A DNA stretch of 64,000 nt from Bilabrum cf. latius (GCA_965178125.1 OZ237747.1:1-64000); one strand, 5' to 3'; shown: positions 10,279 to 63,597, numbered from the stretch's first letter. A program made the numbers and translations. Notes: generated from the sequence alone by a model not told the origin.

Positions 10279-10668
10279 ATGGATCTTGGCACCATGATGA
10301 TTGTACCAATGCTGTGCGTGCTTGCAGCTGGCTTGTAGCTGCATTACATCAAGATCATCTTCGCGTTCATTGGGAATGCTGCCAAATCCAAGTTTCTGCA
10401 GGCGGCCTCGCTTGGCCCAGCGACAGACTTCGTGCATCGCGCCGCAAAGTACGTCCACCCGATTCTGTCTTCTGTGCTTGGAGTCGGAAAATCTGGTACC
10501 CTCTCGTTCAAGTTTAGCGATGTGCTGACAATGGCAGCAGTGGTGGGAATGGCTTACCTTGCAACGCAGCTGGTCTCCGGCGAGGAGGAGAACTCGAAGC
10601 CCAGCAAGGGAAAGAAGAGCGGCAACAAGGTGCCCAAGGCTTCTAAGGAAGGCAAAAAGAATGATTGA
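10279..10668 (+). CDS. Small membrane protein with Lys-rich tail (129 aa, one in-frame TAG at 10336)
   Basis: MDLGTMMIVPMLCVLAAGL*LHYIKIIF... runs into ORF 10432-10668; two hydrophobic segments; TGA stop. Confidence 0.7.
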
Positions 10669-10793
10669 TTGCATCGCTGCCGCGTTTTGCCGATTGGTTT
10701 GCGAGGCGATGGTAATATCAGTTTCGATTTGACAGACAGTTAGCTTTGACAATCACGCGATCTCGCATACAACACCGTTTCTACAAACGTCTA

Positions 10794-13700
10794 TCACTCC
10801 CCACTTGTTTTTAGAAGCTTCGCTGCTTTCTGCTAGGCTTGGCTCCAGTTGCGTCTCAACGCAGCAAGCGTGCCAAAGATCTCCTTTGGGGATGTCGTCG
10901 CGTCCTGGCGAAGGTACCTAACAAGGCCCGCAAAAGACCGAAGGGCATCGTCATACTCAGCGTTGAGCTGCCTGACGAGCCCCGATGCTTGCTACGTGAA
11001 CAGGGGCAACCGGAGCCTGGCGAGGTGATCCAACTCGGAAGAACTACGAATCGATGCCATCGACAAGGGTTTAGGCGAACCCTGGTGCTGGTCGCCACCA
11101 GAGGGAATGCTTGCGAGGCTTACCCCGGATGCTGCTCGAGCCGGTCGAGTTCCCGCGTTTGAGCCTGGTTCGCTGCTTGCTTCGGCAGCCGTGTCCCCGC
11201 CCACAGCCATCCCCCCTGTCCCGGCCGCGCTGGTCGAGGACTCGGCGCGGATCCGCCCCGACCAGGACCCCTCTGCCCTGATCTGCTCCCGCACGGCCCT
11301 CTCTGCACCCCTAAGCCCGGTGGAGAGCGTCGCTTTCATGGCGTGCAGGTCCTCGAAGGTGAACAGGCTGGCCTCCTGTGCGGAGCCCAGGCTGCTGTCC
11401 ACGTCCAGAGCTGACAGGTGCTATGCACCGGCCCTGGCGGCTGAATCGGCCAAAAACTGCAGGGCGGTAGTCTTGTTGTCGAATGCCTTTGTCTGCCACG
11501 CCGCTTTGACAGAGTCGAGGATGAAGCCCTCGCGCAGCTGCTGGTTCCCATTCATGCGCTCGGCGAGAGACTGCAGTCCAGACAAAAGCTAGCGCAACGC
11601 TCTGCTGCTCCTCGCCCCGGCGATTGCACCATGGATGACCCGCATCTTGCTCCAGCACTCCCACAGCCTTCCTCCGAAGGTGGCTTGGAAGTGCAGCGCG
11701 CTGGCAGAGGCCATCGGGTTGGGCAGCTCCCTTAGCGCGTGCACGAAGCGCTCTGCCTCCGCGAGATCCTCCACCGGCCCAGAATACTGGCGCAGCGTAG
11801 CCAGCTCATCCTGCGTTGGGATGACCGATACTAGCAATTCCAAGCTTTCCACACTGAGCACTCCCAGATGTACCGTATCGACACGAGAAGCAGCTGCCGA
11901 CTCGGTATCACGGCACCCAGAAGTTGCCGCGATGACAGTGTCCTTCCCAGCAGATGAGAGCACGCACGTTAGCTCCCGTAGGCAAGTTGCTAGCACCCGC
12001 GGCTCGTGCTTTAATCGCTTGAGGGCAATCCCAAGATTGGTAGCTCGTTTGAAGTCCAGCAAGCGCACCTTGCCCTGCTTACCTGCCGTGGAAGAGCCAC
12101 CTGGTTTTGGCCCGCTGCCGAGTGCCCCCGTCCTTTTCTTGGATTTCTTCTTCCTAGTCATGGTAAACAGCTTCTCGAATAGCGACTTATCGAACCCTGG
12201 GATTAATTCGGCTAATCCTGACGGCTTGGGCCCCCTGATCGATTGGGAAGTAGCCACATCGTTCACCCACACACACTCCGCAGGTGCTGCTCGGACGGCT
12301 GCCTTCGAAACTGGCTTCAAAAAGAGCCTGCGCCTGACTAGCTTCCGCTCTTGCCGTTTCTGCTGCGCCCGGGCTTGGATCTTCCACTGAGCAAATGAGA
12401 AGCCGTGGAATCGCTTCGGAAGTGGCTTCTTTGGATCGCAATCCAGCACATCCGGAATGACGTTGGCAGCTTGCATGGCCTCAGCAATAACTTTACGCGG
12501 CTCCCCAGCCGCCAGTTGCTGGAAGAACGGACCGTAGCTGCTGTGCTTGGACAGGACAACCGTGAGATCCTCAGTGCTTGCCTTGGCGCGTGTGCCTTCG
12601 GCTGATTCGGCAGCCTTAAACGTTCCAGTTGGCACGGGCTTGTCCGGATCCAAATCTGCCAAATCTACATCAATACCCTCCGCTCGCATCTTTGCTTCAA
12701 CTGCTCCCATCGGAACTCGCATTTTAAGCATGCGGAAAAACCGTGCAAGCTTCGGATGATCTCTGGCTGGCCCAGTGAAGCTATCTTCGACCGCTTGGGT
12801 AGGTCGGCGTGAATCCATGCTCTTGCGACTACCCCCAGTCTTGCCACCCCTGTTCCGGATCTCTGCAAGGAGCCCTGACATGGGCCCAGCAGATTTGGTC
12901 TATGCAGTAGACTCATTTAGCACGACTGGTGGTCTACCTGGCCTGCCCGGCCCACTTGCTGGAGGCCTACCTGGCCTACCTGGCCTGCCCGGTCCACTTG
13001 CTGGAGGCCTACCTGGCCTACCTGGCCTGCCCGGTCCACTTGCTGGAGGCCTACCTGGCCTACCTGGCCTGCCCGGCCTGCCCGGTCCACTTGCTGGAGG
13101 CCTACCCGGCCTGCCCGGCCCACTTGCTGGTGGCCTACCTGGCCTGCCCGGTCCACTTGCTGGAGGCCTACCTGGCCTGCCCGGCCTGCCCGGTCCACTT
13201 GCTGGTGGCCTGCCTGGCCTGCCCGGTCCACTTGCTGGTGGCCTGCCTGGCCTGCCCGGTCCACTTGCTGGTGGTCTGCCCGGTGTACCCGAAGCGACTA
13301 GCTAACCCGAACCAGCCGCGTCGCTAGCCCGCTCAATGGACTACAATGCACCTCCACTCAGTGTTGGAATATCGCGGCTACTTGCCTATGTGGAGGTGCT
13401 GACTGCAAGTTGTGATTGCATCGACGCATCTCCACCTGTTGCTTTCTGGTCTTGCGACAACCCTAACATGCTTGCTGGCGGGGCAGGCTTGTGCCGACTC
13501 GGTGGAGCTGGTGGTTGCACGCTCAGATTGGAAGCTGCGACCACATGCAATGTACGCTTAGCACCACCTGAAAATGCAGCAAAAGAAGTTTCATGTTTCC
13601 CTATAGCCAGTCTTGATTCCTTCAGCACCTGGAGTACTCGATGTGCAGCTCTCGCACTGGCCATCGCATGGCTGACTTGGACATCTCTACCGGTGTCTTG

Positions 13701-16364
13701 CTACACTCGCGTGCTAATCAACTTAGCTGACTCCTCCAGGCTGACCGCGCCGTCGTCTATTTGCAAGATTGCTGGAAGCAAATCAACCTCCATCCCTAAA
13801 ACAGCGGCTGCTGCGGCTGCGGCAGCAATCGCGGCAGGCGGTCTCACCGCCTGGACGGTTCTAGAGGAGTCCGCAGCGCCTGATGTTCCTGCCGCAAATG
13901 CCGCTTTTGCATCCATTCCATCTGAAATCTGACGAACTAGGCGTTCAATAGCAGGTCGACTTCCTTCCGGGCATTGCTGCTTCCAGTCACGCAGCAGCTT
14001 GTTGATGTCAGGTGCAAGTGATGCGTGCAGGTCTGACGCAGATGGCGAGCGGTGTGCGTGGAACACCACGCTTTGCTGAAGCCCCCTTTCATCACCTAAT
14101 TCACTAGCGCCCCCCCTTCCTTCGAGTCCATCCTCATATCCATGTTTGAGGCTAGGCGAAAATGTGCTTTCAAGCGCTTCGATAGCTCTTCGGGAAGTGG
14201 ACTCAGCGGGTTGAGGCGTGTGCATACCGCTTTCCAGCTGTTGCGAAGCAGCGGCGGTCGGCGATGCAAAGCCGCTTTCTTCACTAGATTGTGCTTGTGA
14301 TGCCGAGTCGATCCGGCCTTGAACCGTATGCAAAGCGTGAAACAGTGGCTGGAGTATCCTGCGAGCCTCTCGCTACGCCTCAAGGGCCGGGGCAGACGCA
14401 AACAGTCGAGCACGTGGATCCCTGCTGGCTGCTTGAATCGGCGACACTACTGCATTTCTGGACTGCAAAAGCCTTAACAGGCATTCTGCATCACGTTGAC
14501 TGATGGCAGGCGGCGGTTTGTCTGTGCGTGCATCATGCAGCTGCACGGGATCTGTGCTCGCGAGACCATGGCGGCTACGCCCATCCGTACTGATTGCTTG
14601 GTCTGACTGCAGGCCTGAGGTTGATGACGATTCGCTTGGAATACCAGCTGCACTGGGTGGGAGTGACTCTATTGGATCCTGAGCAGAACTAGCTGATTGG
14701 AACGCAGCGCCATCGTCGTCGCCAGGCCCGGCGCTTCCTTCCGACTTGAGCGGCATGGACCCGATTCCAGACAGGAAGGGGTCTCGCAGCAGCTCGGCGG
14801 CCCCAATCATCGAGTTCCTGGATCGCTACAGGGCAACTACCATCGCTGCTTCGCTTACTTCGGGGAAGGAGTGCCTGAGCGTCATGATGCCGCCCACGTC
14901 AGGAAACACGTGGTGGGTCGAGCTCATCACGCTGATCCCAGTCTGCAACGCCTGTGTTCCGGCTAGTCCCGTCCATCGGTCAAGAGAAAACTGCCCCTAT
15001 TGCTCCATTTCGGCCAGCAAATCGCCAGGGGCCGCTCTGAGAATGAGGTTCATCTCGAAATCCCTGGCTGGCACGAGATCAGCGCGGAATATGTCGACGT
15101 GGTCCTCCCTCAAGGGGATCACCTCCAGCTGGCCGGATGGAAGCATTGAGGTGTGCAGTGCAAAACGAGCAAGAAGACCGTCCGTGCTACCGCCGTGTGA
15201 TTCTCGATAGCGGCTGCTTTTCCTCTTCAACCGGGGGCCCCCTCCCATGGTTCGACCAGCGCTGCCGCCCCCTTGTGCCCGGCTGCTCCCCGCACCACTA
15301 GAAGGGCCGATCTCAGGATCGTCATCCGACCAAGCACCCACGCTTGATTCATCGCTTTCGCTGCCCGTGCCACTAGATGACCCTGCATCTGCTGCTGCAG
15401 CGCGCCTGAGCCGCCGTCGCATGCGTGCCCCCGCCGCATGGAGCAGCTCGGCTGGAGCACGCAGGTGAATCTGGACATCGCCACACACAGGCCGACCGAC
15501 ATCAACAACTAGAAGGCCTTCCATCCAACCGACCGTGGCCCCCCCGTCTGCCCCAGATGCCGCCTCCTGTTCCAGAGGGTCGGCAGAGCCGCGTGCCTGG
15601 GCACCACTGGCAGCACGCACTTCCTAGCGCTGGGGGAGCGACGAAGAATCGAACACTTTCAAACCGTCCTAATAGATTTCAATAAATGGCGGCGGAGCAT
15701 TCAAACCCCCAAGCAGCCCGCCCGCATTGATCAATAGCCTGTCAATTATGTGGACGCGCGGGCGAGACGGTTTCGTAAACAGCGCGCCCAAATTCAGAAG
15801 CAGATACCTCCAGGAGCGCATAAGCTTTAGCGAATCCCTACCCAGCCTCGCACGAGCAAATAGTTGCAAAGATGACGCAGTGTCGTGCCGGATCCCTGCA
15901 AACACAAGGTATGCAGCCACAATGAACCCCGACAGTCGTACGCCGTCCGAGCAGCTGACGATTGCGACGTGTTTAGGGTGCCAACAAAGCCATGCATGCA
16001 GCGAGTAGCAAGCGCTGAAAGTGTCTTTTATGGATGGAACCATTTCCTTGCTATCAGCGCGAAACATGGGACGGAAATGCAGGACTTGGCCGCCTAAGTG
16101 GGCGTTGAAGTCTAGCTCGTCATCGTCGGCGTCGGAAAAGTTAAAAAGCAGGAAGTTATCATCAAACCGCCTTCGAATAATAGCCGACATGCTTTCAATT
16201 GAATTGATACGGCCATCTGCTTCAAACTATCCCATGACATAAATCCTAGGCGTCACCTAGGTGAGGTCCGTGGATTTCTTCGTTTCGTGATGTCTTGACT
16301 AGTGGTGTGGGCCGCTGAGACTCGACTGGCTGGCACCAAATAATCCACCGAACCAAAACGACAT
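10794..16364 (-). CDS. Formin with N-terminal PTEN-like and C2 domains, atypical FH1, WH2-like and CCDC53-like motifs, and FH2 (~1856 aa, 17 in-frame TAG)
   Basis: One frame without TAA/TGA joins ORFs 15669-16190, 14997-15620, 14373-14810, 13701-14333, 13386-13664, 11589-12881 and 10992-11402. PTEN-like [32 protein letters not shown]2 PFIEIY*DGLKVF; FH2 [41 protein letters not shown]. Confidence 0.9.
12929..13282 (-). repeat. Coding tandem repeat (PPASGPGR[PGR]n) in the FH1 position of the formin
   Basis: Modular repeats of CCACTTGCTGGAGGC and CTACCTGGC/CTGCCCGGC on the + strand. Confidence 0.85.
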
Positions 16365-16588
16365 ATCAGGCCATCGAGTATGCCTTCAATACATCCATTT
16401 TTGTTGTAGTTTCAATGCTTTGCCAACGGTTTGAAGTGAGGTGCAGTTTCACACAACAAAATCGTACTTTACCAAGCAGCCCCAAAGAACAGCCCTGGCA
16501 CAGGAAGACAGCACAAGACAATAGGAAGCCTACCAAGTCACTTGAAGTGATTCCAGATAACAAGTTAAGGGATAGTAGAGAAAGAGAT

Positions 16589-19207
16589 ATGTCATCATGG
16601 AGAGGAGCTGCGTGAGTTGTCGCGATGCAGTTTGATTTTGAACACGTCTCTCGATAGCAAAAGTTTTGGCCACAGCCGGTGATGATATCATAGAATTCGG
16701 TCTAGCTCTTGCATTTGCTGCGTATTGCAGGTCCCGCGGAGCCCCAGCCGGCGCTTCTGGGGAAGGCAAGTTCCCAAAGCGTTCTGGCGGGCAGTCTGCT
16801 TTCGGCGGCAGCAAGAGCGGCAGGGGTGGGCCCCGCGATGGAGCCGCGCCAGAGTCAAAAAGTGCGTTTGGATCGTCTCCCCGACCATCTGGTGGAAGCA
16901 AGTTTGGCGGTAAGGGGACATCGGAGCGTTCGGCATGGGCAGAGAGAGGCAGTCGCCCGGCAGGGCGACAGGAAGCACCCTCTGCATTCCAGACTCGCAC
17001 GGTCGGCCCTAGTGCCGCAAAGCCAGTTGGGGGAAGGCAATTTGAGACATCATCTGCATTCGGGGGATCGAAGCGGTCAGCCGATGATGCGCCGAAATCG
17101 GCGTTCGGAGGTTCAAAGCGGCAGGAGACTGACGCTTCTCGATCGGCATTCGGGAGCAGCCGCCGCCCCCCCGCGGGCGACTCGCCAGCTTTCTCCAGTC
17201 GAAGGGCGGATGCCCCGCAGGCGTCATCTGCGTTCGGCAAGCGACCACCTGCAACGGCTGGTAGCAGCGCATTCGGTACTGCCAGGGCGGCCGGGAAACC
17301 GGCGGATGCGGGGGGATTGTTCAGCAGCAAGCGACCGGCGCAGGATGGGGGATCGAGCGCGTTCGGTAGATAGCGGCCCAGCCGTGGTGCGCCCGACGCT
17401 GGAGGTATCTTCGGGTCAAGCCGGCCCTCGCAGGACCGAGGTGGCAGCACTGCCTTCGGGTCCTCCCGCCCCTCGCAAGACTAGGCGAGCAGCGTCTTTG
17501 GGTCGTCCAAGCCTCGTCAAGGAGGTGCTTCTGGCGGGACGTTCGGCTCATCCAGGTTCGGCTCGTCCCGCGGCGGCTCGAATGCAGGCGTGCCCGAGGA
17601 GGTGGTGGAGGAGGTGCAGCAGGTGGCAGTGCCCAAGGCCCTGCAGAACGCGCAGAAGCAGGCAGGCGCTTCCTCGGCCGATGTGTCGGTGCAGAAGGGC
17701 CCGACTGCGGACAGGAAGTTGCTCGAGGAGGCCGCTCAGCTCAGCCCGAGCGTGGCGATGTCAACATTGAAGGCTAGCGTGGACGGCATGCTCCGTGATT
17801 TGGCAACCACCATGGACGTGGATGGGGCTGTGCGGCAAATCGTGGATGCCGCCAGGGGGTCTGGTATGGCAGAGTTCCGCTCGGAGCTGGTGCGCATGTC
17901 AGCGCGTTTCGCTGCCGATGCAGACAACGCTGCTGTTCGCGTGCGTGCGGCCCAGCTGTTCCGCGTGCTATTGGAGGGGGCCTCTGCGCAGGAGCGAGAG
18001 GCAGCCCGCAAAGCCGAGCGCAGGGCCAAGAAGGGCAGGAAGGGCGCCAAGGGAGGGGCGACGGGGGAGCGCGCTTTGTCCAAGGAACAGATGGAGCCGC
18101 TTGTGAACCTGGTGCAGGTGTGCACTGGCATCGAGTCAGTGGATGCCTAGATCGGGGAGGGAGCAGGAGCTGGCGCAGCTTCAGGAGCCGGAGAAGAGGA
18201 TGCCGCGAGCCGCAGGATGCACCTGGCGCAAACACTGGCGATTCTTGTGCAAGACGGCGTGTTGGATCGCCGGGGCGTGCCAAGCGAGGGCACGCGGGAT
18301 CTCCTGAAGCTTGCGGGCGTGCGCGGCGTGGTCGATCCTGCCGTGGCGGCCGCATCTGGCATTGATAGCGCATCGGCCGAGCAGATAGCTAAGGAGACCG
18401 TGGATGACTCTGCCAGGGGCAAGGATGCTCTGGCGGCGCTGCAGACACGCCTGACAAAGTATGAGGAGGCCGGCTTCGTCTTCCCTGAGGCGGACATTGC
18501 TGGAGCTCTCATGCAAGCAGCAGCACATGTGAGTTTCCGACGCATACCATCCCGCCCGTCTCGCACTGCGCATGCCTGCCGTTCCTATTGATGCATACCA
18601 TAGCACACCGAAGTGGCGGACCCTAAAAGGGCTACGATCAGAGCTTGGTCCGCCGCGCGATTGAGGATACCCCGTGCTTTCCTAAGGGTCTGAAGGAATG
18701 GCTGCGAGTTTGCAGTTGTCATCCGTGCGCCTTCTTGCTAGCATTATACCTCTTCTGACAGTTTGCAGCTTTGCACTCTCTCCGTCTTTGCATCCTTCGC
18801 AGCACGCGCTCGCCAACGGAGAGCTCACGGTGAAAGCGCCCTGGCTCGGTGAGTCTGCCTTTGGGGCGCTCTTCGAGGAGTTGCTGTGGGAGAAGACTGG
18901 AAGCGCGTCCGCAGGGCTGCATGCTTTGCAGGGAGTGCTACACGAGGCCGATTTCCCCCCTCACGTGCTGGAGGGCACCATGCTAAAGCTGTACCGGGAG
19001 GAGATAGTGGAGGACAAAGATTTCTTGCTCTGGGCCTCGGATACGACTAATGAGACGGCTGGCAAGTCCCGTGCGCTCTCGCAGCTGCCCAGGTTCTTGC
19101 AGCGAGTGAAGGAGGACATGGAAGAGGATGAAGAAGAGGATAGTGATGATGATGAGGGGGCGGACTCCGGCGAGAGCGATGCAGAGGAGGACGACGACGA
19201 GGAGTAA
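16589..19207 (+). CDS. Translation-factor-like protein: SAFG-repeat N-terminus, MA3-like helical domain, C-terminal W2 (eIF4G/eIF5-C) domain with acidic tail
   Basis: Introns 16612-16730 and 18529-18802 (GTGAGT..CAG). TAG at 17371, 17482, 18148. W2-like AA-box LKLYREEIVEDKDFLLWA..FLQRVKEDMEEDEEE; TAA stop. Confidence 0.75.
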
Positions 19208-19372
19208 ATTGAATCAGCCTGATAATTCAGAGTGCATGATACGCGACAGAATAAAACACGGAATGGATCCAATTTGAATTCACATAAACTCCCAATTCCG
19301 ATTGGTCTCTCAGTGCGAAAGACGAAGCTGCTGTGCTGTAGCAAGTGCTGCCGCTCGTACACCTCGTCGATC

Positions 19373-20371
19373 TTAGCCCATCTTCATCGAAGCTAGCAAA
19401 TTCTGTTGCTTGGCATCATTGATGAAGTCGGCTATTTCCTACACATCATCCAAGAGATCTACACACGGTATAGATAACACCTGGGGCCTCGCATTGACAT
19501 CGACGAAGCAGATATTGAGAGTGTCTATGCTACCACAGCTTGTCGGACTGAACTGGACCTCTACATCTGCCCTAGACAAGTACATATTTTCGATAGTCAT
19601 GTCCAACAGGCTAAGAAGCTGCTAGTACCTAACAACAACATCGCCAGACTTGAAAACAAGCACCCCTTCTTGAAACTCCCCGTTTTGTAGTCGTCTGCTG
19701 TGCTCGTCGCGGGCTAGGTACGCCAAGTACACGCAGTAAGCGCATGCTCCTACCCTGCAAATACACAAGCACGGTTGTAACGAAGTCAATGTCTCTCCAA
19801 GATAGGCTAAGCGGGGCTCGATACGATTGCGATACAGTCCCAGTGGCTTATCCTCACATGGCTAGACACCCCACAACCAAGAGGCCTGCCCGGGCTCCAC
19901 CCGAGCTGGCAGCACCAACACTTATGAGCAGAATGCCAAGTGCTGCGCCGCCCCAGGCTGAGTACCAGAAAGCAGGCGGATACCGCAAAGCTGCCTAGAA
20001 TACCTGCAGGAGGATACATTAAGGCTTCGAGGTGGCATCCGGCTTGCGTAACCACGGAAACAAATACAATTTGCACAACCAGCCCGAAATAACATTGTCA
20101 GAAAGGATAGCTGTGGCTAGGATCTGTGTGAGGACACCGGTGCAGCCGGTTGGGACAAATGAACGATGCTAACATGGGTACCATCGGGTAGTATTTCGTC
20201 TCTAGGTTCCGCATCAAACTCATCAAGCAAGTTTTCGGCTATTGCCATAAGTTCAGGGATGCCTTCGATGCGATCGTGAAATTGTTTTAATCCTGTATCT
20301 GATTTATCTTCAATCATCTTCGTTACTGTACAATGCATTGCATTGCACTCTAGCTGTGGGTTCTGATCCAT
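19373..20371 (-). CDS. Hypothetical two-TM membrane protein (3 exons)
   Basis: Exons 20371-20174, 20003-19858 and 19754-19373 splice in frame (GTTAGC/GTGAGG..CAG). Hydrophobic GGAALGILLISVG and GLLVVGCLAMVGACAYCVYLAYL; in-frame TAGs; TAA stop. Confidence 0.6.
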
Positions 20372-20466
20372 TCTGGCGTCTGACTTTTACTAGACAGAGT
20401 GGCGGTTCTCATCGCTGAGGTGTACAGCGACAGTAGAATGCATGATCATTGAATTTAGTTGCGGTG

Positions 20467-22047
20467 ATGGACGGAACAATGAGTGAATTACGGGGCTTTT
20501 CAATGAAAGATGCTGCCGAGCACGCCTAGCAGCTTGAAGCGGCTGCTAGAAGCTCACATGCCTCCATGATCATGTTGCATGCTCAGCAAGCACCTATGCT
20601 GCAAGGCAAGAAGGCTTTGAATCGAATCATACGAGCACTACTTGATGAGTGGTTGGCTCTAGCTGTGCCACTCGCCACTGCGGCTCCACTACGAACTACA
20701 GTGCCGAAGGGTTGGAATGATGTCCCTGTTCCTGCTGTCCGGATAGGGAGCATATGTGGCATTGATGTGATTGCATGTAAAGCACCTCTGGGGAACAGAT
20801 TCTCTCATAAAGTCCCGAAGAAGCATGCATGGCGCCCTGACCTGGCGGCAACTCTGCGACTGTACTCGATTCGAGCTGTCGTCGATCTAACCCTGGCGCG
20901 GGACCAATCGTACTGTTGCATGAGCGAATTCGGTCCAGGCATCTGTGGGTACTTCAAAGTACCTCTGGAATCACGAAGGAGTGGCGGTCCAGGGACATCC
21001 GAGCTACATCTGGCTGTCGCCTTGCTTCGCCGGGCATGCACCATGTCCGCAGCCCCCCTGGAAGAGCGGGCTGGCACGGCAACACCAAGCGAGACTGGAT
21101 CGAGTATCACAGACAAGGTACAGTGTAAGGCTGTGGGATGCCAGGTGTTCTGGCAGCATGCTGACCAGTGCGTGGGTGCTCGGGAAGCACAGAGCAAGGC
21201 CAGCGTGTCTGCTTCGGCCGTCGGAGTGGGTGCTTGGGAAGCATAGAGCATGGCCAGCGTGCCTGCATCGGCCGCTGCGAAGCAATCTATGCCTACTGAG
21301 TCAAGTACTGCTACCGCCAGATCCGGTCGCTCGGCGCTGTGCTGGTAGCCCCGTTGTATTTCAGGGCATGCGAGGGGGCACGTGTGCAGCATCGCGTCCC
21401 TGCGGCACAGGCTCCTTGAGGCCGATGAGAAGCACGGTAGGAAGCCTGCGGTGCTCCTGCACTGCACCCACGGCATGCACCGGACTGCTCTCGTCTGGTG
21501 CTTGCATAAACTCACTCAGACAGACCGAGCTCCGCTCAACGAATTGGCGGCCTCTAGCACAGGGTAGAAACGAGCTGCTGCTCTGACTGCTGCTTGCGAG
21601 GCGTCAAGCCAAAGACGGTATCAGCCGGTGCCCGCGGGCCCGTCCAGCAGTCGCACCCCTGCGGGTGACACGCCCCGCGAATCTGGGGTAGCAGCTTCAG
21701 ACTCCGCCCCTGGCCCTCGATCCGGGCAGGAGAGTGGCGCATCGCACCGCAGGGGCCTGGAAGAGGGCAGAGGCGTCCCTTTGGTCACGATACCCGCGAA
21801 GAGGAAGGCACAGGACTGCATCGAAATTCAGAGTGCTGGTCCGAAGCCTGAAGCAGCGCGCAAGCGCAGGCGCGTGGAGGATGCCGCCAGCGACAGGCTC
21901 CTGACAATGAGGGAGGCTGCTATGGATGCACTGAAAACCTTTCAGTCTACGAGAGGGTGCCGATTCCAGTGGCCGTTGGAATCCCTAGCCGAGACGTTGG
22001 CACGCGCAGCACTGGCTAGCAACCGTGAGAGGGGTGGATCGTTTTGA
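20467..22047 (+). CDS. Cysteine-phosphatase RNA 5'-triphosphatase family protein (DUSP11 / capping-enzyme TPase-like)
   Basis: IACKAPLG..F...VP....W.P, AVVDLT and catalytic loop VLLHCTHGMHRT. TAG at 20527, 21244, 21346, 21565; TGA stop. Confidence 0.75.
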
Positions 22048-22103
22048 TAGACATCCTTAGGGAATATCAGACAACTGTGCACAAGTCTCCGAACAAGCGC
22101 AGT

Positions 22104-22584
22104 TCAATCATCTTTTCCAGAGGCTTCACCCTGCTTTTCAGCGGCCTCAGCTGCCTCTGAGGTACTCTTTCCCTTCGTTGCTGACCTGGCTGCCATGTAC
22201 TGGTCAAGTTCAGAGTCCATGCGTTTCTTGGCTTGTTCAGGTATCTGTATAAACATGAAAGGAGCGTGCCGTTGGATTCAACAAATGGCGATCACACATG
22301 TGAGCTTGGCATTGGCAAGCTCAGGCGACGTCGCTCACCCTGCTGAAATACTTGTCCAGTTCATCATCAAGGGATTTCGGGTCCGAGTCGGAGCTCTTCC
22401 CAAACAGTGGCTTCCCCTTCGGCTTCACTCTTTTGCCGGATCTTTTCACCGAGCCAGCCTGCGGCATGGAAGTGTTGCCTCCTCTCTTGCGTTCGCGCGG
22501 TTTCTCTGCAAAAAACAATGGGTACTGAGCAAAGCTGGAAGAATGAAAAAGTAGACACGCATGGACGGAAGTTGACAAGTCCAT
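22104..22584 (-). CDS. Small protein with duplicated FoP/CHTOP C-terminal (UAP56-binding-like) motifs; 5' end uncertain
   Basis: KSLDDELDKYF and RMDSELDQYMA joined across intron 22245-22338; TGA stop. Confidence 0.6.
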
Positions 22585-24187: not shown

Positions 24188-24330
24188 TGGGGATCACTCG
24201 AATGACTAGATCTACGCCGCGCACTTGCCGCAGCCTAAACTACACCTTACTTAATATTCGAGCAAATCCGACGACGATCCTCCTTTTCTAATCCCTCTCT
24301 ACAGAATAACGTGTGCCGACAGTGCCACAC

Positions 24331-25374: not shown

Positions 25375-25482
25375 TCCCGGGGGCTGCTCGCGACGAATCT
25401 GGTTCCGGTTTGTCAAGGCCGCCCTATACAATCAAGCGCACATACCGATAGTTTCTTCCAGTTTTTTTAAAAAAAATTTCCA

Positions 25483-50073: not shown

Positions 50074-50170
50074 AACAAGGCGAAGGCAAGCGGGCCAGCC
50101 AGCCTCCGATGCAACTCGGAATACTCCAGGCCTAGATTTACGCCCGCGCAGCGCCATAGTCAAGTGTACG

Positions 50171-51850: not shown

Positions 51851-51982
51851 TAGCGAGTCCATTTTACTCTACTTTGCATTAAGTGCTCGTAATCCAGTTG
51901 CACTTAAATAACCGGAACAAAAATCCACCAATCAGCGAGAAATCGCGATTTGATTCTGCTCGCTCAGCGAAGTCAGTCGAGA

Positions 51983-53515
51983 ATGTCGGCGCCAACATCC
52001 GTGCTAGATACGCTTGGGAGTCATTTGTAGCTGCCGCGGCTCTCTGGCTAGCGGGATACGAGCGAAGTTATCGGTGGGAAGCGGGCCGTGTTGCTGCTCT
52101 TCTCCGCGCGGTGGTGCCCTCCGTGCAAGGATTTTGCTCGAAAGCTGGCAACGTGGTACAGAAAGAATAAGGATAAACCTGACCAAGAAATAGAGATCGT
52201 ATTCGTGTCCTTAGATCATTCTGAAGCCGAGTACAGTCGGTACAGCGGCAGCATGCCTTGGCCAGCGTTACCCTGGAGTGCCGCTGTGAAATGCAGGGAG
52301 GCCCTAGTAGGCTAGCTTGGTGTTGGAAGCATCCCTGCAGTTGTGGCGCTTGACCCCGGCGGAAAGCTTCTCACGACAGACGGCCGCAGAGTCGTGGACG
52401 TCGATCCTGATGCTGAACTGTTTCCTTGGACAGACACGCTAGGCTCCGTGCTGAGAAAGGCTGGACCTTTGCTGATGCCAGATGGCACGATAGGCCCTAC
52501 CTTTGACTAGCTGCGACTGAAGCACCAGCATATTGCTTTGCACTTTTCAGCTGGGTGGTGCGAGCCGTGCCTGGCATTCCGCCCGGTGCTGCTCGACTGG
52601 GTGAAGGCACGCACCTCTCCCGGGGGCCTTGACCTCGCAGTGGTACTGGTCAGCATGGATCGGGACGAGTTGGTCTTCCACAAGGCCCGCGCCGAGTACC
52701 CGTTCCCCGCGCTGAGCTGGAAGGCGCGGCGAGTGGCGGGAGACGCCGGTCGCCTGCTGCGTGTCATGGCGCTCCCCACGACTGCCGTGATAGAGTCCAG
52801 GACGGGGAAGGTGCTCACCACTAGGGCAGCTGATCTCATCCGGAAGGAGCCCGCCGGATTCCCCTGGCCGGCCCGTCCGGTGGAGCCCCCTTTCACGGTT
52901 TGGCGCCGCGCACTCGAGTTCCGCTACACTGCTGTCCTCCTGGTGGACCGCTGCACAAACAGACACGCAGAAGATGTCGCGAGAGAGGCTTTCGCCGCGG
53001 CTGCGGGGCGCGTGTTCGATGGCGACTTGAAGGCCCGTGGCAGCGGCATGCAAGCGTGCGTGTGCGGGGCCGAGGACCCGGAGACGAAAATGGTGCGGAA
53101 AGTGACGCACCTGCGTGACGCCGCTGCTTTGGCCCGACACAGGGCCTCGTCCGGCAAGGGGGAAGATGCATCCCCTCGTAAGGGGGCCGCCGGGGGTGCG
53201 GGGAGTGGGGACGGGTCGGGGGCATCGGCAGAGGGCAAGCGGGAGGAGGGGCAGGTCGAGGTCGAGGGGTAGGGGCATGGGGAGGGGGAGGGGGAGGGGG
53301 AGGACAACGAGGGGTCGGTGGAGGACGAAGAGCTGCAAGTGGTAGTGCTGCGTCCCACCACCGACCAGTGCTGGTACCTGGGCCCGAGGTACAAGGGCAA
53401 GAGCCAAGCCGCTGGGGCCGCCAGTGGGGCAATCACCGCTGCCGGCTTGGAAGAATTTTTTCGAGACATCCTCGGCGGGAAAATCGAAGAAGAAGCTGTT
53501 AAATTCGCAGAGTGA
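51983..53515 (+). CDS. Nucleoredoxin/tryparedoxin-like protein with two thioredoxin-like domains
   Basis: LFSARWCPPCK..EIVFVSLD..MPWPALP and HFSAGWCEPCLAF..VLVSMDR. TAG at 52028, 52049, 52313, 52508, 53270; TGA stop. Confidence 0.88.
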
Positions 53516-54388: not shown

Positions 54389-55746
54389 ATGTCAGGCTGG
54401 GGTGATTCTGGTGGCGGTGGCTGGGGATCAAGCGGTGGCGCTGGAGATGCATGGGGCTCTGGCGGAGGCCAAACTGGTGGTGGCGGAGGCTGGGGTGCAG
54501 CTTCCGGAGGAGCGGGGGGATCAAGTGGGGGCTGGGGAAGTTCAGGAGGTAGTGGCGGTGGGAGCGGAAGTGGTGGGGGGTGGGGTTCGGGTGGAGGCTC
54601 CCAGAGTTTGCCAGGCGCAGGAGGCAGGGATGACATTCAGTTTCCATCGCCAAGCTCGGGAGTGCCTGACACTATTCAAGAAATATAGTGGAGCCCTAAT
54701 GGCAAGTTTGTCGCTTGTGGCTCATGGGATGGCAAGGTGAGAGGTTGTCGTGCAAGGCTTGGGCGGTTTCATCGCACCATGATACATGTATGTCTGAGTA
54801 CGTCTGACTTGTCTTCACTTATGCGCAGGTATATATTTATTAGGTGAACGGACCCGGAGGCGGAGGGCCCCCGGTTGTATTCTAGACATCGATAGATACG
54901 AAGTTCCCGGTGCTGGACTTGCAGTGGGTGGACGACGCCAACGTGGCTGTCGCAAGCGCAGGCAAGTCTGTGCAGCTGTGGAACCTGCAGAAGGCAACCA
55001 ATGTTGTAGTGGGCGGGCATGATGCACCGATTAAGTCACTGCGAAAGTTCTGGATGGGGCAGCAGCCAATGCTGGTGTCTGGCGGGTGGGACAAGTGCAT
55101 CAAGTATTGGGACCAGCGGCAGCCGGGCAAGGCCCGCGAGGTTAAGCTTCCCGAGCGAGTGTATACGATGGATGCGAAGGGCCGCACGCTGGTGGTGGGG
55201 CTGGCAGAGCGCCAGATCGGCATCTTCGACCTGCAGGCGCCAGACCGCCCACGCCGCGAGATGCGCTCCCCGCTCAACTACCAGACGAGGTGCATCTCGG
55301 TGGCATCGGACGGGCTGGGCTTCATCCTGGGCTCCATCGAAGGGCGGGCCTCCATCAATTACGTGGATGCGGCGCACGACGACAAGCGCAGGTTCCAGTT
55401 CCGGTGCCACCGCGTGGACAACAACGCCTTCCCTGTGAACACGGTGGACATGCAGCCCGGTGACCGGTTCAGAGACGCCTTTGTGACCACTGGGGCGGAC
55501 GGTTCGTTCGTTTTCTGGGACAAGGAGAAGAGGGTGCGGCTGGCAAACCCCTTCATGCACCCCCGCAACCTGCCGGTCACCACTGCGAGGTGGAGCCCGA
55601 GCGGAGCGCTGCTGGCGTACGCGCACGGCTACGACTGGCACATGGGCATGCGGGGGTTTAAGCCGGCCGAACAGCCCGTCAGCATCCACGTGCACCCTGT
55701 CGCGGACAAGGAGCTCACGTACGTGGATGCCAGCAGGGGTTACTGA
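54389..55746 (+). CDS. RAE1: mRNA export factor Rae1/Gle2 (WD40) with GW-rich N-terminal extension
   Basis: DTIQEI*WSPNGKFVACGSWDG; intron 54737-54828; HDAPIK, SGGWDK, LPERVYTMD, SPLNYQTRCI, GSIEGR, FQFRCHR, FWDK..R.RL, AYAHGYDWHMG. TAG at 54686, 54841, 54883. Confidence 0.93.
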
Positions 55747-55988: not shown

Positions 55989-58619
55989 TCACTCGAAGGG
56001 AATGACGAATCGCTCTCCAGCAGCCCGCCCACTCGTTGCCCCTGCCGCCCCTCTCTCCCCCTTCCCTCCTCCACGAGCCAGGCCGGCCGCCATCGCCTCT
56101 ACCGCCCTGCGGCCCGCCTCCCTCAGCCGGTCCCGCGCGTCCCCCGGCAGCCACCCCACTGTGTCTCTGCTCCCTGCAGACAACTCGAACCGCCCGGCAT
56201 GCCCCCTCACCGCCGAGTCCGCCAGCGAGTCCCGCACGCCTCTCTCCAGCGAAGGCAGCGCCACCCGCAGCACATCCCGGTCCTGGCTCACCAGCCGGGG
56301 GTCCAGGCCCAGCGAGGCCGGGGACACCACTCGCAGGCCGGCGATGAAGCCCTCCAGCGGCACCCTGACGCTGCCGGATGCACCACCCACACTGCCTTCG
56401 CCCAGCGGCCTGCCGTCCTGCGCCAGGTACTTGCGCCCCTCGGCGCGAGCGTCTGCCTCGCTGCCCACGCTCGATGAGCGGGCGCGCACCCTGGTTGGGC
56501 TCCGGTACCCAGCGATGGCTGCGTGTGCATTATCCCCACCCTGCCCCTGTCCCTGTCCCTTGCGTGCTTGTGTAGCGAACTGGATGTCGCTGTCGCTGTC
56601 GCTGACGCTGTCGTCGCCATCTCCGCCCTCGTCTCGCCTGCGCCACAGATCAGTCGCATCGATGGGCTCCGGGCCCGCCCCGCTGAGCAGCTGGTCCACC
56701 ACTGCCCAGCACATCCCTGTGGTCACCGGCTGCAGCGAGAACCTGAACTGGGCTCGGTACTCTGGGCGGATGGGCGCGGCATGGCTGGGGCTGACGGCTG
56801 AGGGCGAGCCAGACCCGTCGGTCAGTCCCATCGCAGGCTGGCTCGACGCATCTGGGCCGGGTGCAGGGGATGAGGAGAACGACGAGGAAGAGGAAGAAGC
56901 GGACGAGGAGACACCGGGGCGCGCAGGGTCGGCCTGCCGCGGGCCAAATGACGAGTGCGCCCTGCGCTTGGCAGCCTGGATGATGCCGGCGTGTTCCTTG
57001 AACTCTGCGTTGGCTTTCACCAGCTGCAGCACCCTGCTAGAGGCATCCCGCCTCGGGTCGAACCCCCGCCGCACCCAGCAGTTTCGGAAGGGGTCTTTGC
57101 TGAGCAAATAGGCCACCCCAGGTAGGAACTGGGCCAGCAGCCCGGGGACACGGTCCCTCGCAGGCAATCGCCCGCTGGGCATCCCGTCCAGCAGCGGGGC
57201 GAACCGATCCCCGTCCACGAGCGGGAAGAGGGTCTCGAGAGCGCCCTGGGGCCACACGGGTCGAAGCCGCAAGGCCCTCTGCAGCGCCACCATCAGCCGG
57301 AAAGCCATCCATTTGCTGGGAGGACATTCCCCCACTGGGGCGGATACGCTCCCAGAGGGTGAGGAGGACGCTGCCGAGGACGAGTACTAGGACGAGGGTT
57401 CCCCCCCTGCCTCCAGCCACCGCTGCCAGTCCGCAGGTGGGTGCTCCGGCGGAATGCTCTCCTCCACGAGGCCCTCTGAGTGCCTGAGCCTGTGCCTCGC
57501 CACTGCCTGCACCTCAGCAGATGTGAGCAGGGGCACTCCGGGCGCACTGTCAGCACCGGGCACTCCCCCCAGCCGCAGCCCACTGAGACCCACCGACCAC
57601 TCCGCCCTGGATGCAGCCTTCCGACGGATGGCGCTCCCGCTCCGTGGCGGCTGCTTGCTGTACGGGACGTCCTGCAGCCTGGTGGGCGGGAGCAAGTGGG
57701 CAGGCGGGGGGAAGCCCGGCTGCAGCACGCCCTGCAGCACCTGCCAGGGGGCCCCGCCCTGTGCTCGCGACAGCCAGTACCGCCCCCCCTTTGCAACGGC
57801 AGAGCCACCCTCCTCGCTGCGGTCATCCGATGTGGCCAGCCCATCTCCGGCGGCTCCCATCCGGAGAGCGCGCACTGTCTCGGCCACGCCTCGGGCCGCA
57901 GCCCAGGCGGTCGCAGCGGTGGCCTCGGTGGCGGTACTACCCAGCCGGCCGCTGCGGTCGTCTCGGCGGGTTACAGGGCAGCCCAGAAGCTCCGCGGCTA
58001 GGTCATGCGGGTCCACCGCACTTCTGTCAGCACCTCCAGCACCCGAGCTTCCTTGCCGTGCCAAGAGCTGGGCTGCCAATGCGCCTATTGCACCCTTTTC
58101 CTCGGCATCTTGCGTGCCAGCCGACAAACGGCCTAAACCTGCGCTAGTTTTACCCACACTGCTCCGAATTGCGCTTCCGAGCAATTGCGCTGCCATTTGT
58201 GGGAGCCGTGGCACCGCCCCAGATCCTTGATCCAAGGCCTAGAACGAGCCCAGCTTCCCAGGCCTGTAGTTCCCGCCATTTTTCTGAATTGTTTGTTCTG
58301 GTAGGACTTGCTGATCACAAGGCTCGTCAAAACGCTGCTGTCGATCCGCAACCCCGAGCAATTCGCCAGCTCCGGACGGGCGGATTCGAATTACAACAGC
58401 AGACACCGGGGCCGAGATCGCACGGCATGCCGAACTCTACAGGTCAAGTGGACGAACATGTAATTTGGCGTTACCAAGGGGTGCGCAAGCCTAAGCGAGT
58501 CCTGCGCTCCCACCAAGCAGGACTGCTGCTGTTTTGCTGCCCGCTACTCGAACCGGCAAGTTGATCAACTCAAGACGCCCGACCGGATACTCCAGGGGAA
58601 TCGAAATAGTGTCTGACAT
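55989..58619 (-). CDS. GTF3C5: RNA polymerase III transcription factor IIIC subunit 5 (tau95/Tfc1)
   Basis: N-terminal INLPVRV..AAVLLGG and ELLGVA...F..PCDQQVLP; tau95 motif LPGVAYLLSKDPFRNCWVRRGFDPRRD..R.LQ. TAG at 58491, 58437, 58239, 57387; TGA stop. Confidence 0.8.
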
Positions 58620-58681
58620 CTTCAAACAAGCAAAGCCAACAGCTGGGGCACTGGTCGGTAAATGGACGAGACCAGCGGTGG

Positions 58682-59634
58682 ATGGCCCAGAAACACGCAC
58701 TTGCCTTGCCTCCATGGCGCCGCGCACGGATGCGGATGCCGTTGGTTCCGCTACTGTCGTGGTGGTGCCGAGGCAGACAGACCAACAAACTAGCGGCTGG
58801 GCGAGACAAGTACGAATCATCTGACTTCGAATCGACTTCTGCATATAACTACAAGTTTCATTGGCTTTCGCGGGGGAGACATCATTTTGTTGCAGTCGGA
58901 AAGATGCATTCTACTAGAAGGCATAAGGCCGGCATCACCGAGCACCAGGTCGAGCGTGCTATCCTTGTGTACGCTGCCGATGTCAATTGGAGCTGGACTG
59001 TGTTCATTCAAGAGGCAATCTACAATTTTTTCGGGCATCTAGCCGCTGGTTTCATCTGGATGCGCCATGGGACAACCGGGCTGCAAAATCGGGCCTTCGA
59101 TTGCACTTGCTTTGGGTCTGGGCACATAGTCGTGATAATGCAGGCTGCCATCCTGCTGCTATCTATTTTATCTCTCACTTTTTTCGTCGCTGGGCGCGTG
59201 CTGCACGGGTTCGATTTTGAAGTCTCAGAGAGCGAGGTTTTGCTGGCCTTGAGCCTCAACATTTGCCGCTGCTTGACAATTGCGACAAAGTATGGCTTCA
59301 TGCCAAAGCCAGTGTACAAAGGGCTGGATAAGAGGGTCATGAGCGTCGAGTCGCGGTCCGAGTATCTTCTCCTCGGTGGCTGGTGGGCGCCCAGAAAAGA
59401 GCTGCTTTATAGAGAAATGGAGAAGGCCTCGGCCAGGCACGACCCTGAATTCGATACGCGCCTTGTAGTCTTCGAGACGAAAGAAGCGAAGCAGGCAGCC
59501 CTGGATGCCATGCGCTAGTCCCTCAATTTTTTCATTAAGATGGAGAGCGGCCGGCTCGCCCCTGACATCGAGCAGGAGCTGAGGTACAACAACGCCGCGT
59601 GGCAGCTCAAGTGCCAGCGAAACAAGGCCTAGCG

Positions 59635-59665
<31 letters not shown>

Positions 59666-61840
59666 CGGGGCGACGATTCGATTGAGATGCTAGCCCAGGC
59701 CCGCTCCCCCAGTCCCAAGGTCGAGGACGAGCACGAGCGAGCACCGCAAGAAGAAGAGGTAGCAGAGATGCAGGGCCCCTTGTCCTCGCTGGCGCTGCTG
59801 GCCAAGGACATGGGACCTTCCGCCGTGGAGTGGATGAGAGCCATTCGGGGCAGGAGGGCGCAGGAGCAGGCTGCCGCGGCAGCAGGGGGGACGGGTGGAG
59901 CCCGGGGCGAGGGGCAGCCACATCGCTCGGGCGCAGGCCGAAGCACGCACAACCCCTTGTAGCAAGCGGCCGGGGGCGGCAGCTAGTCAGCAGCCCAGCA
60001 GAGTGAGAAGGACGCACCGCTCGCGGGCTTCAAGCCGACCTCCCCTGCGCTGGTGGTGGCTGAGGCGCAGGGGAAGCGGGCGCGGGCTCGAGTTGCGCAC
60101 CAGCAGCGCGCTGCTGACTCGACCTTGTGCCAGTTGCTGGACAACACCGAGACGGGGAGGGACATCTGGAAGAAGGCCATGGCGGCCAGACACGCCATTC
60201 CGGCGAAGCTGTTTGCCTGGCACACTGTGGGCAAGTGCTACATGGAAGAGCCCTCCGTCTGGCTGTCTATCTTGGCCAAGGTGGTGGCCCTGATCTTCGC
60301 AGCGCTGCCTATCGCCGTGCGCATGGGACTGGATATTCCCCCCTTTGGCACCACCCCGCTGTCTGGCGCGGCGATCGTTACTACCATGATGCTCTCTGGT
60401 TTTTGCGCACACACCACAGCGCTCTACTGCTGCGTGGGGGCTCTGGATGCCTCCCGCCGCTTGCAGGTGCAGCTGGCCATGAGCGAGCTCATCGACCTCA
60501 AGAGGGACGGAGTTGCGGACGCGCGCATGATGGTGCAGTCCGTGCAGGCAGACATCGACTGCGAGAGGAGGCAGGCCGCCGCTGCAAAGGCGGGCCTGAG
60601 CTCGTGTGGCCCTGCCGGCGATCGGCGCCGCTCCTCGGGGCCTGGGCTGGACCGCAGGAGCACGCTGGACCTCTCCACGGAGCTGCAGCGTAAGGTGATG
60701 GAAAAGTCCATCGCGCACACAAGGCAGCAGGGGGGCTCCACGGGGCCCTCTGTGCTGCAGGCGGCTGCGCTGGGAACTGCTGGCCAGGGTCTAGCCAGCG
60801 CAGGGCAAGACGTAGCAGGCCTGGAGACCGACCTGGAGGGCAGTCTGCACACCATGTCATCCATGCCCCGTACCAGGAGGCGCATGTCCGTGCTGCATGA
60901 CGTGGCTCCGGGCATTGAGGTGGACAGCGACGAAGACGACAGCGATGGAGATTCGGGGGGGTTGGCGGCGGGGAGCAGAGCGGCTCCGGCGCAACGGGGC
61001 TGCGGCAACGGGGACAGTCGCCGGGCCCGCGCGGAGACCACCGGTCTGTCCAATGCCCTTTTGCGCGTTGGCGGCCGGCAGATGGCCCCTCCCGCGCGCT
61101 CGGAGCTGCTGGAGAGCGGCGCCCAGCTGTCTCAGAGCGCTGCTGCCCGATTCGTGCGAGACGAGTTGAGGACGCTGAGGCTGCCGCTGCTGCGCCCTGG
61201 CAATGTGGAGGCCTGGTTCCAGGTGAGGCGCGTGTGCTTGGACACGGGGCGGCTGTACGAGCGGCGCATCACGGCCAACGGGGGGCTGTACCTGGCTTTC
61301 GCATTGGCCAACCTGGTGGCTGTGTTCGTGATGGTATTTACCGAGGCGGGGGTGGTGGTGCGACTGGCAGAGACAGGCAACGTGTACGATCTGTCCAGGA
61401 GGGACCGCGTGCTGCTATCTCGGTTCGGGATCTTGGTGCTCTCCTGCCTGCTGCTAGAGCTGCTGTTCAGCCTGACAATCATCGCGCAGGTGGTGCTGGG
61501 AGCCATGTCCAACGAGGAGGGGACCATCCACTGCGACCGCATAGTGCAGGCAGAGGCAGTCGTCACCGAGCTCAGGTTCTCGCCCCCTACCGTGCTGATG
61601 CTGCTCGCAGCACAGCTCGCCAAGAACTCCGTGGATAGGGTTGCTCTACGCCTTGGAGCAGTGGCCGACGCATGCAACGTGGCGGCGCGGCGCATTCGTT
61701 CTGAGCTGGACGTGGAGCCGATGCGCATCCTGGGTCTGCCCGCATCTTTCGCGCTCGTGAGCACGATCGTGTCTGCGGCGGGGTCCGGGGTGGTGGCGGC
61801 AGCATCTGCAATCTCTGACACGGTCTCGCAGCAGGCGTGA
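58682..61840 (+). CDS. Multi-pass membrane protein, PHTF-like (7TM ion channel superfamily); start uncertain
   Basis: About 7 hydrophobic segments; LRLPLLRPGNVEAWFQVRR..DTG and C-terminal PMRILGLPASFALVSTIVSAA resemble PHTF motifs. TAG at 59516, 59630, 59663, 59960, 59984; TGA stop. Confidence 0.6.
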
Positions 61841-62069
61841 CTCGAGATGCATGCGAGTGGCTCGCGTGGGTCCGGAATATGACTCCGGATTTCGTGCGGC
61901 AGACATCGACTGCGAGCGGAGGCAGGCCGCCGCTGCAAAGGCAGGCCTGGTACATATCCGGGTGTTTGGAGGATTCTACATCCGGATTGACACGCTTAAC
62001 CTAGACTTCTAGCTGATTCAAACTGTTCGCAACCGAGGGGTAGCTACCAGGCTACGCTTGTATCTCCGA

Positions 62070-63597
62070 TTATTCGGCACCTGTGGCACGACCCTCTCCA
62101 CCGCCCACCTGCTCCCCCAACATGAGACCCCTGATGTCCAGCAGTTCCTTTGGCACGCGCGCCTCGACTCGGTTGAATTCCACTTCCCAGGCGGCCCCTT
62201 CGCCTATCCTCCCCTCCTCCCCTTGTTCCCTGCCCTGCCCGTTCCCGTCCAAGCAGGCAGCACCCGACCGTTGGACGCGATGGATGCGCACCAGGCCTGC
62301 TCTGCTTCCACTGCCGGCAGCTCGCGGGGCCGGCGCCGCCCCCGACACGGTTGGAGGGACGAAGCTGACCTCGTCCTCATCCTCCTCCTCGCAGAGCTCG
62401 GCACTGAGGGAAAAGGCAGGGTGGCGACAACTGGCGTGGGGCGGTGTCCGGTGGCCGATGGCATGCGAATCGGCTCGCTGCTCTTTCACGACCAGTCTGG
62501 TCTCCCTGTCCCTATCTGCCAGCAGCCCACACCTTGCCTCCGGACGGAGAGGCGCGCTGGGCACCGCGATCACAACTCGAGGGCTAGTGAGAAGAGATCG
62601 TCCATCCGGCCTAGTGCGCCGCCCCCACAGGTTCTTGACCCTGGATACCCGCTCTGCTGCGCTCCCAGCAGTGCCAAGGGCCCCTTTGGCGCCTTTCTGC
62701 TGCCTGCCAACGGAATCGGCACGACCTGCACTGCCCGCCCCGCTGCCTAACTCAAAGGGCGCCAGACTCTCGATGTCCGTGCCTCGGTTGCGCGCCAGGC
62801 TGTCTGCTTGTGCCTATAACGCTTTGAAACCGGCCCTCACCCATGCTTGCATCCTATGCTACGGCGGTTTATCGCCCTGTGGCAAATCGTGCTGGGTGCC
62901 AGAAATTGACGCACCGGAGCTGCTGCTGTCTCTCGCACCACCCGAGGCTTTCGGATTCGTCGAAGTCCCGCTGGTAGCACCAGCATTGAGATCTTCCTCC
63001 TCGTGGGGTCCTGCAAGTAGGGCGTTTGCGGCACGGTGCCTGGGCGTGCCTGTTCCAGCAAGCAGTCCGATGGCTCGATGAATGAGTGCGTTCTCGACGC
63101 TGGACCACCCCGCTGAGTGGACACTGCCCCTGTCTCTATGAGCAACTGATTCGAATGGAATTAGTTGGTCAACTCCAAGTACGGCAATGTGATGACGGTG
63201 GCTTGAGGCCGCTGATCCGGCACGCAAGACGCTGTGCATGATCGCTCGAAGCGAATCGCATTCACAGACGTTCACACCGGAGGCTTCAGGTGGACATACT
63301 TCTGAGCCCCGCTAGTCACTTAATGCAGAATCTTGGCAAGATCCCCCTTGGATTCGCTTCATGGCTGACAGGTCCAAGCAGCCTTGGCTGCTGCACAGCA
63401 TGGAGCAGCTGCCTTCGCCTTTGCGATACTCAAAATTCAGGCGGAGCAACCAGTCGATCGCAATACTTTTCCGTAGACTGCGCTTGTAAATACGAATTGC
63501 CGGAAACACGACGCATACTACCAACAATCACAGCTCCGTGCGTGAGCCAAACAGGCCATGCTCACTCAAAACAGTCGCCCTCCAGTACCGCCGCCAT
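62070..63597 (-). CDS. Hypothetical protein (2 exons)
   Basis: MAAVLEGDCFD|LRKSIAIDWLLRLN after a GTGAGC..CAG intron; frame joins ORFs 63312-63527, 62859-63275 and 62070-62573 via TAG; TAA stop. Confidence 0.55.

Follow-up and report, generated by a model that had tools for sequence, protein, structure and literature searches.

We analysed a window of 64 kb, the whole stretch reaching from one chromosome end of Bilabrum cf. latius (GCA_965178125.1 OZ237747.1:1-64000), a single-celled eukaryote with GC-rich DNA. We found that its genes very probably follow a variant nuclear genetic code that reads UAG as an ordinary glutamine codon, while UGA as the main signal and UAA as a minor one end translation. 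An earlier note on this DNA had proposed UAG as glutamine with UAA and UGA kept as stops, and the proposal stands: TAG is present in mRNA, glutamine fits it best among the residues considered, and TAA is kept out of reading frames. Because all 22 gene models of the window carry TAG, an annotation made with the standard code would break nearly every gene.

TAG, but not TAA or TGA, occurs inside reading frames

Gene models were built with introns seen in RNA for 21 genes, to which a spliced sulfatase gene was added to give 22. Across the 21 models (13,830 codons) TAG occurs 105 times, beside 427 CAG and 145 CAA, which amounts to about 15% of the glutamine codons, and internal TAA and TGA are both absent, in agreement with the earlier note. 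Once upstream exons are joined, every one of the 22 models contains at least one TAG. The earlier note had described TAG in 25 of 27 models, and the ubiquity of TAG was reproduced although the number of models was not (22, not 27). Its formin with 17 in-frame TAGs was recovered at 10794-16364 on the minus strand with no TAA or TGA. No gene of the 22 stops at TAG: 18 stop at TGA and 4 at TAA. The TAA ends fall exactly where they had been placed (19205, 19373, 51848 and 62070), whereas the TGA ends number 18 instead of the 23 given before. Pfam domains in the TAG-containing open reading frames (ORFs) include FH2, W2, NUDIX, NHL, isochorismatase, epimerase, ankyrin, peptidase-C39-like, thioredoxin-like, WD40 and Tau95, and these domains run across in-frame TAGs.

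The same pattern appeared in stop-to-stop ORFs of at least 500 codons between positions 10001 and 64000. The standard code gives 1 of these, and reading TAG, TAA or TGA as sense gives 15, 1 and 14, respectively; ORFs near 2,000 codons (2012 and 1863) are found only with TAG as sense. The pattern goes far past what chance would produce. In the 16 single-exon coding sequences (11,919 codons), TAG is equally frequent in all three frames, with 94 in the reading frame and 107 and 93 in the two off-frames. For TAA the corresponding counts are 0, 31 and 53, and for TGA they are 0, 163 and 217. The 50 codons past each of the 22 stops (1,100 codons) hold 8 TAA, 19 TGA and 11 TAG, and comparison of these flanks with the coding sequences by Fisher test gave P values of 8 × 10−10 for TAA, 3 × 10−22 for TGA and 0.37 for TAG.

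These counts bear on whether the window uses the ordinary code in which UAA and UAG (UAR) both mean glutamine (NCBI table 6), with TAA merely rare through high GC. A GC-rich genome would make TAA the rarer of the two codons, and most known stop-to-glutamine codes alter both codons according to PMC5304391. However, if TAA were a glutamine codon used at the CAA/CAG ratio, the 13,830 codons should hold about 36 of them, and none was seen (Poisson P 3 × 10−16). TAA is absent from the frames, yet it is present in the off-frames and in the 3′ flanks, so the code is not the common UAR one. When TGA was taken as the sole stop, many TAGs were spread evenly along long genes and TAA was confined to ORF ends or spacer, namely to codon 14 of a 2027-codon ORF, before its ATG, and to a cluster in an intergenic spacer. 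Four genes end at TAA, and in the eIF4G2-like gene the TAA stop comes directly after the C-terminal W2 domain and an acidic tail. We consider the UAR reading extremely unlikely and conclude that TAA is not a sense codon and is most simply a stop.

TAG is retained in mature mRNA

Four sequencing runs (X4 to X7), of which X5-X7 come from two other studies, were compared with positions 10701-30700 of the window. X4 is DNA and follows the window colinearly. X5-X7 show eight joints, bounded by GT..AG or CT..AC, that are missing from X4, which indicates that X5-X7 derive from spliced RNA. The nine gene models of this region contain 44 TAG sites, at least 37 of which lie, unchanged, under the RNA pieces listed. 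RNA contigs at 10726-12981 and 13245-16384 cover all 17 TAGs of the formin with no changed letters and no gaps, and a contig at 20401-22029 over a 526-codon ORF is likewise free of changed letters. Only five letter differences were found in the whole 20 kb, none of them at a TAG. Because the RNA contigs carry the TAGs unchanged, introns, editing and sequencing error are excluded for the RNA-covered TAG sites, with the reservation that contigs may hide rare variants. The earlier note had named unedited UAG in RNA as a check on its proposal, and in the spliced contigs the TAGs are neither spliced out nor edited.

We found no evidence in support of a broader explanation by artefact or non-translation, which would attribute the in-frame TAGs to sequencing or assembly error, UAG-to-CAG editing, unrecognised introns or pseudogenes. 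The X4 DNA and the RNA-type runs of two other studies all match the window at TAG sites, the formin RNA contigs are colinear with it, ORFs stay intact up to 2001 codons, and a relative described below keeps the same genes, also with TAGs. An artefact is therefore barely credible as the source of the pattern.

Homologues and internal repeats support glutamine at TAG

TAG was translated as X to keep alignments with homologues unbiased. In the isochorismatase, the residue opposite CDM-X is Q in all three solved homologues. In an 814-amino-acid protein with six homologues, Q is found in all six at FNI-X-PAL and again at IG-X-G, in four at WE-X-IG (E in two) and in three at LLPNN-X (E in two). The FH2 site LR-X-LL faces Q in FMNL3 and DAAM1 and S in mDia1; the sulfatase site YYT-X-P faces Q in ARSB (1fsu) and H, C and H in three others; and the NUDIX site HT-X-IAVG faces Q in NUDT6 and V in plant NUDT7. 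All invariant columns that contain a TAG are Q, and the strongly conserved columns tested were glutamine each time. Six motifs around TAG had been quoted in the earlier note and all six are present in their places. Of the glutamine sites it offered as examples, those in the sulfatase, isochorismatase, NUDIX protein and FH2 domain held up, and those in the NHL and C39-like proteins could not be confirmed. The NHL matches came chiefly from designed proteins, in which one TAG, in an unconserved column, faces T, and the FVL-X-R site lies outside every alignment obtained; for the C39-like protein no solved relative was found. Two further genes gave no residue information, as the epimerase TAG falls in a variable insertion and the PDB alignments of Rae1 begin downstream of its TAGs.

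A likelihood test, which learns from the same alignments which residues homologues show opposite each query residue, ranked Q first (−16.8) and K second (−22.6), a gap of 5.8 log units. Internal repeats pointed the same way. The two copies of a tandem duplicate within the 526-codon ORF, GCT-CGG-GAA-GCA-CAG-AGC and GCT-TGG-GAA-GCA-TAG-AGC, pair CAG with TAG, a (QA)n repeat in a 2001-codon ORF has TAG in the Q place at its start (TAG-GCC-CAG-GCC-CAG-GCG-CAG), and a poly-Q run in a 1052-codon ORF reads (CAG)9-TAG. Additionally, Q makes up 21 of 210 TAG neighbours, compared with 4.9% of residues overall (P 0.002). Taken from the alignments and repeats, glutamine is supported as the best-fitting residue for UAG.

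That UAG might instead encode another residue, such as Glu, Lys, Leu or Ser, is suggested by some TAG sites that lie opposite E, K, R or L in homologues, and other eukaryotes do read UAG as Leu or as Ser (PMC11687900). Nevertheless, the invariant columns are all Q, the next best residue in the likelihood test falls 5.8 log units short, TAG equals CAG in the duplicate, the (QA)n repeat and the poly-Q run, and Gln is by far the commonest orthologue partner (8/18, see below). We give a residue other than glutamine very little chance.

The same code in a relative

An exhaustive search with the TAG-free exon of Rae1 returned one protein at 76% identity, with all others at or below 47%. It belongs to a metagenome contig (L001; 4,597 bp, GC 54.5%) on which Rae1 is followed by a convergent Tau95-like gene, the order seen in the window. 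The contig's 1,177 codons include 11 TAG and neither TAA nor TGA. Ten of the TAGs are in frame in the Tau95-like ORF and one is in Rae1, where homology to the window Rae1 goes on past the TAG to a shared TGA. In a codon alignment of the window with L001, counted in both directions, there are 18 TAG sites. Eight of these face CAG or CAA, and all sites whose flanks are conserved belong to the eight. Other sense codons are paired with CAG or CAA at 70 of 2,398 positions (2.9%; P 2 × 10−8 for the comparison with TAG), and real glutamine codons pair with glutamine at 32 of 110, which does not differ from TAG (P 0.27). Since a relative about 71-76% identical in Rae1 has the same code, the code is a trait of a clade and not of one strain.

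The two L001 genes use CAA (28) and CAG (25) roughly equally, from which we take L001 to be less GC-biased than the window. When metagenomes were scanned with the formin, no relative turned up. In the Rae1 tree the neighbours are environmental sequences, and the best named matches of the epimerase come from a cryptophyte (66%) and from diatoms (about 61%).

Termination, points against the reading and a possible mechanism

In 3 of the 22 genes an in-frame TAG follows the stop directly, at 10791-10793, 22048-22050 and 51851-51853, forming TGA-TAG twice and TAA-TAG once. These TAGs may be remnants of earlier terminators, tandem stops or, with so few genes, a matter of chance. They also speak for a dual-meaning UAG of the Condylostoma or Blastocrithidia type, sense inside genes and a terminator at some ends, and the sample of just 22 genes leaves room for such ends. 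On the other hand, TAG closes none of the 22 genes. In the window and in L001 alike, TGA is the stop of both Rae1 and the Tau95-like gene, the 814-amino-acid protein ends level with four homologues without a C-terminal extension (P0001-P0004), and the FMNL3 alignment of the formin runs on across a TAG that lies 13 codons before the TGA. Within the one window sampled, a dual-meaning UAG seems very improbable.

Several points weigh against the conclusion that UAG is an ordinary glutamine codon with UGA and UAA as terminators. The sample is one of 22 genes, and UAG as an occasional terminator elsewhere is possible. For two of the four TAA-ended genes (49928-51850 and 62070-63401) the evidence is the ORF itself. 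The RNA pieces listed leave seven of the 44 TAG sites uncovered. At the residue level, TAG lies opposite L, L and K/R in the nucleoredoxin, opposite K/D, S and E at other FH2 sites, and opposite A (four homologues) or V (two) at PPQ-X-A in the 814-amino-acid protein, and 10 of the 18 TAG sites in the alignment with L001 pair with residues other than glutamine (four R, two A and one each of K, T, E and G). The columns with these non-glutamine partners are all poorly conserved, which is normal for real glutamine codons.

If UAG is an ordinary glutamine codon, it would be decoded by a tRNA-Gln with anticodon CUA, pairing with UAG and not with UAA, and eRF1 would have lost recognition of UAG while still reading UAA and UGA. 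According to PMC5304391, tRNA-Gln(CUA) reads UAG and not UAA, is one mutation away from tRNA-Gln(CUG) and is known from organisms with UAR=Gln codes. ARAGORN and Rfam found no RNA genes in the window, tRNA included, and tRNA and Rfam scans of the metagenome contigs L001 and L002 found nothing. The eRF1 gene is not in the 64-kb window.

Genes of the window

The gene models begin with the formin (10794-16364, minus strand; 1856 codons, 17 TAG, end TGA), which is identified by its FH2 domain (Pfam E 1 × 10−33). An eIF4G2/DAP5-like gene with a C-terminal W2 domain follows (16509-19207, plus strand) and has three exons, 3 TAG and a TAA end at 19205-19207; it is backed by spliced RNA contigs, Pfam W2 and PDB 3d3m/3l6a. 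Next to it is a spliced gene not assigned to a family (19373-20300, minus strand; 3 TAG), with CT..AC joints in RNA contigs and a TAA end at 19373-19375. The 526-codon ORF with the internal tandem duplicate and RNA contig 20401-22029 lies at 20467-22047 on the plus strand (4 TAG, end TGA), and the NUDT6-like NUDIX gene at 23108-24100 on the minus strand (two exons, 3 TAG, end TGA). On the plus strand these are followed by the NHL-repeat protein (24331-25374; 3 TAG), the isochorismatase-like gene (25483-26361; 1 TAG, at the CDM-Q motif), a 3,5-epimerase/4-reductase-like gene (27100-28473; three exons, 1 TAG) and the 814-codon gene with six homologues (28536-30980; 9 TAG), each ending in TGA. 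The last of these belongs to a family that has no name, and there is no Pfam match for the window protein; its metagenome relatives are 35-44% identical, and one of them, P0006, has PF18962 in a precomputed Pfam list.

An RGG-rich ORF of 564 codons occupies 31158-32852 on the minus strand (8 TAG, end TGA), and the low-complexity 2001-codon ORF with the (QA)n repeat occupies 33437-39442 on the plus strand (14 TAG, end TGA). Beyond it are an ankyrin-repeat protein (40265-40984, plus strand; 1 TAG, end TGA), a 313-codon ORF (41103-42044, minus strand; 2 adjacent TAG, end TGA) and a double peptidase-C39-like gene (42155-43285, plus strand; 2 TAG, end TGA). The ARSB-like sulfatase gene (44648-46700, minus strand) is spliced in three blocks, has its single TAG in YYT-TAG-PICSPTR and ends in TGA. 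The plus strand then carries a 995-codon ORF (47086-50073; 8 TAG, end TGA), a 640-codon ORF (49928-51850; 8 TAG, TAA end at 51848-51850, with an in-frame TAA cluster in the spacer after it), a nucleoredoxin-like gene with two thioredoxin-like domains (51983-53515; 5 TAG, end TGA) and the mRNA export factor Rae1 (54389-55746; at least two exons, 3 TAG, end TGA). The TFIIIC Tau95-like gene is at 55989-58844 on the minus strand (4 TAG, end TGA), the membrane-protein-like 1052-codon ORF with the poly-Q run is at 58682-61840 on the plus strand (5 TAG, end TGA), and a 443-codon ORF with ORF evidence only is at 62070-63401 on the minus strand (3 TAG, TAA end at 62070-62072). Predicted ends overlap between the 995- and 640-codon ORFs (49928-50073) and between the Tau95-like gene and the 1052-codon ORF (58682-58844). 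The first-ATG starts used in the models are probably set too far upstream in some genes.

Chromosome end and a dispersed element

Telomere and subtelomere take up positions 1-8264 (no strand assigned), where (CCCTAA)n arrays, in blocks some 120 CCCTAA units long, are interleaved with a 155-bp repeat present four times; together they build 5-6 units of about 1.4 kb. The region marks the end of a nuclear chromosome, one that is not a simple telomere. A 70-bp tandem repeat was seen at 9706-10107. GC in the window is about 60% (range 52-66%), the DNA beyond the telomere and subtelomere is gene-dense with a GC of 55-66%, and introns are GT..AG with lengths of 87-274 nt.

At 26040-27380, between the isochorismatase and epimerase genes, X4 DNA depth rises to about 5,000-9,000 compared with about 80-90 elsewhere, RNA depth is high and many loose ends are found in all runs. 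We conclude that this segment (about 26.0-27.4 kb) is a high-copy dispersed element, for which there was no match in Rfam or Pfam.

Comparison with known codes

The code with UAG as glutamine and UAA and UGA as stops was formerly listed as NCBI table 15. PMC5304391 and PMC11687900 describe reassignment of UAG alone to glutamine in Iotanema spirale, in Protocruzia tuzeti and in two phyllopharyngean lineages; by their account UAG and UAA nearly always change together, with few uncoupled cases. This agrees with the statement in the earlier note that UAG-only reassignment is rare. The common UAR=Gln codes are used by many ciliates, hexamitin diplomonads, some ulvophytes, oxymonads and Amoeboaphelidium, as listed in PMC5304391.

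Iotanema spirale (Fornicata) gives the three codons meanings identical to those proposed here, and, according to PMC5304391, UAG was never seen as a terminator and occupies glutamine columns about as often as CAG/CAA. Stop usage is different, with 104 UAA and 15 UGA among 119 ends in Iotanema (same source) and 18 TGA and 4 TAA here (Fisher P 2 × 10−10). The genome of the window also stands apart from that of Iotanema in being GC-rich with TTAGGG telomeres. Set against ciliates, the window is the end of a chromosome of at least 64 kb with TTAGGG repeats, 52-66% GC and GT..AG introns of 87-274 nt, whereas ciliate macronuclei are AT-rich with G4T2/G4T4-type telomeres. Protocruzia tuzeti and the two phyllopharyngean lineages resemble the window in code, as UAG alone has become glutamine and UAA is kept as a stop (PMC11687900). 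With stop usage unlike that of Iotanema and genome features unlike those of ciliates, an independent origin of the code is plausible.

We found no report of such a code in a matching organism, within a coverage of the literature that is incomplete. The chances seem about even that the window represents a UAG-to-Gln-only code that has not been reported before and evolved independently, in a GC-rich clade of at least two species, neither ciliate nor fornicate, with UGA as its main terminator. Were this so, no earlier case of the kind would have a chromosome-scale assembly, and the suppressor tRNA and the eRF1 changes that discriminate UAG from UAA would be directly readable from that assembly. 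Each new lineage tests whether tRNA-Gln(CUA) and particular eRF1 substitutions arise repeatedly, and because a high-quality genome and transcriptomes exist and a relative has the same code, mechanism and age can be worked on without new sampling.

Like the UAR=Gln codes of NCBI table 6, the code proposed here turns a stop codon into glutamine, and unlike them it does not make TAA a sense codon. It shares with the rhizarian exLh, where UAG is leucine, and with Scotinosphaera, where UAG is serine, the uncoupling of UAG from UAA, as set out for those two cases in PMC5304391 and PMC11687900. It differs from both in that the evidence here favours glutamine over leucine, serine and every other residue, and the window probably adds a further, independent lineage to a known, rare code type.

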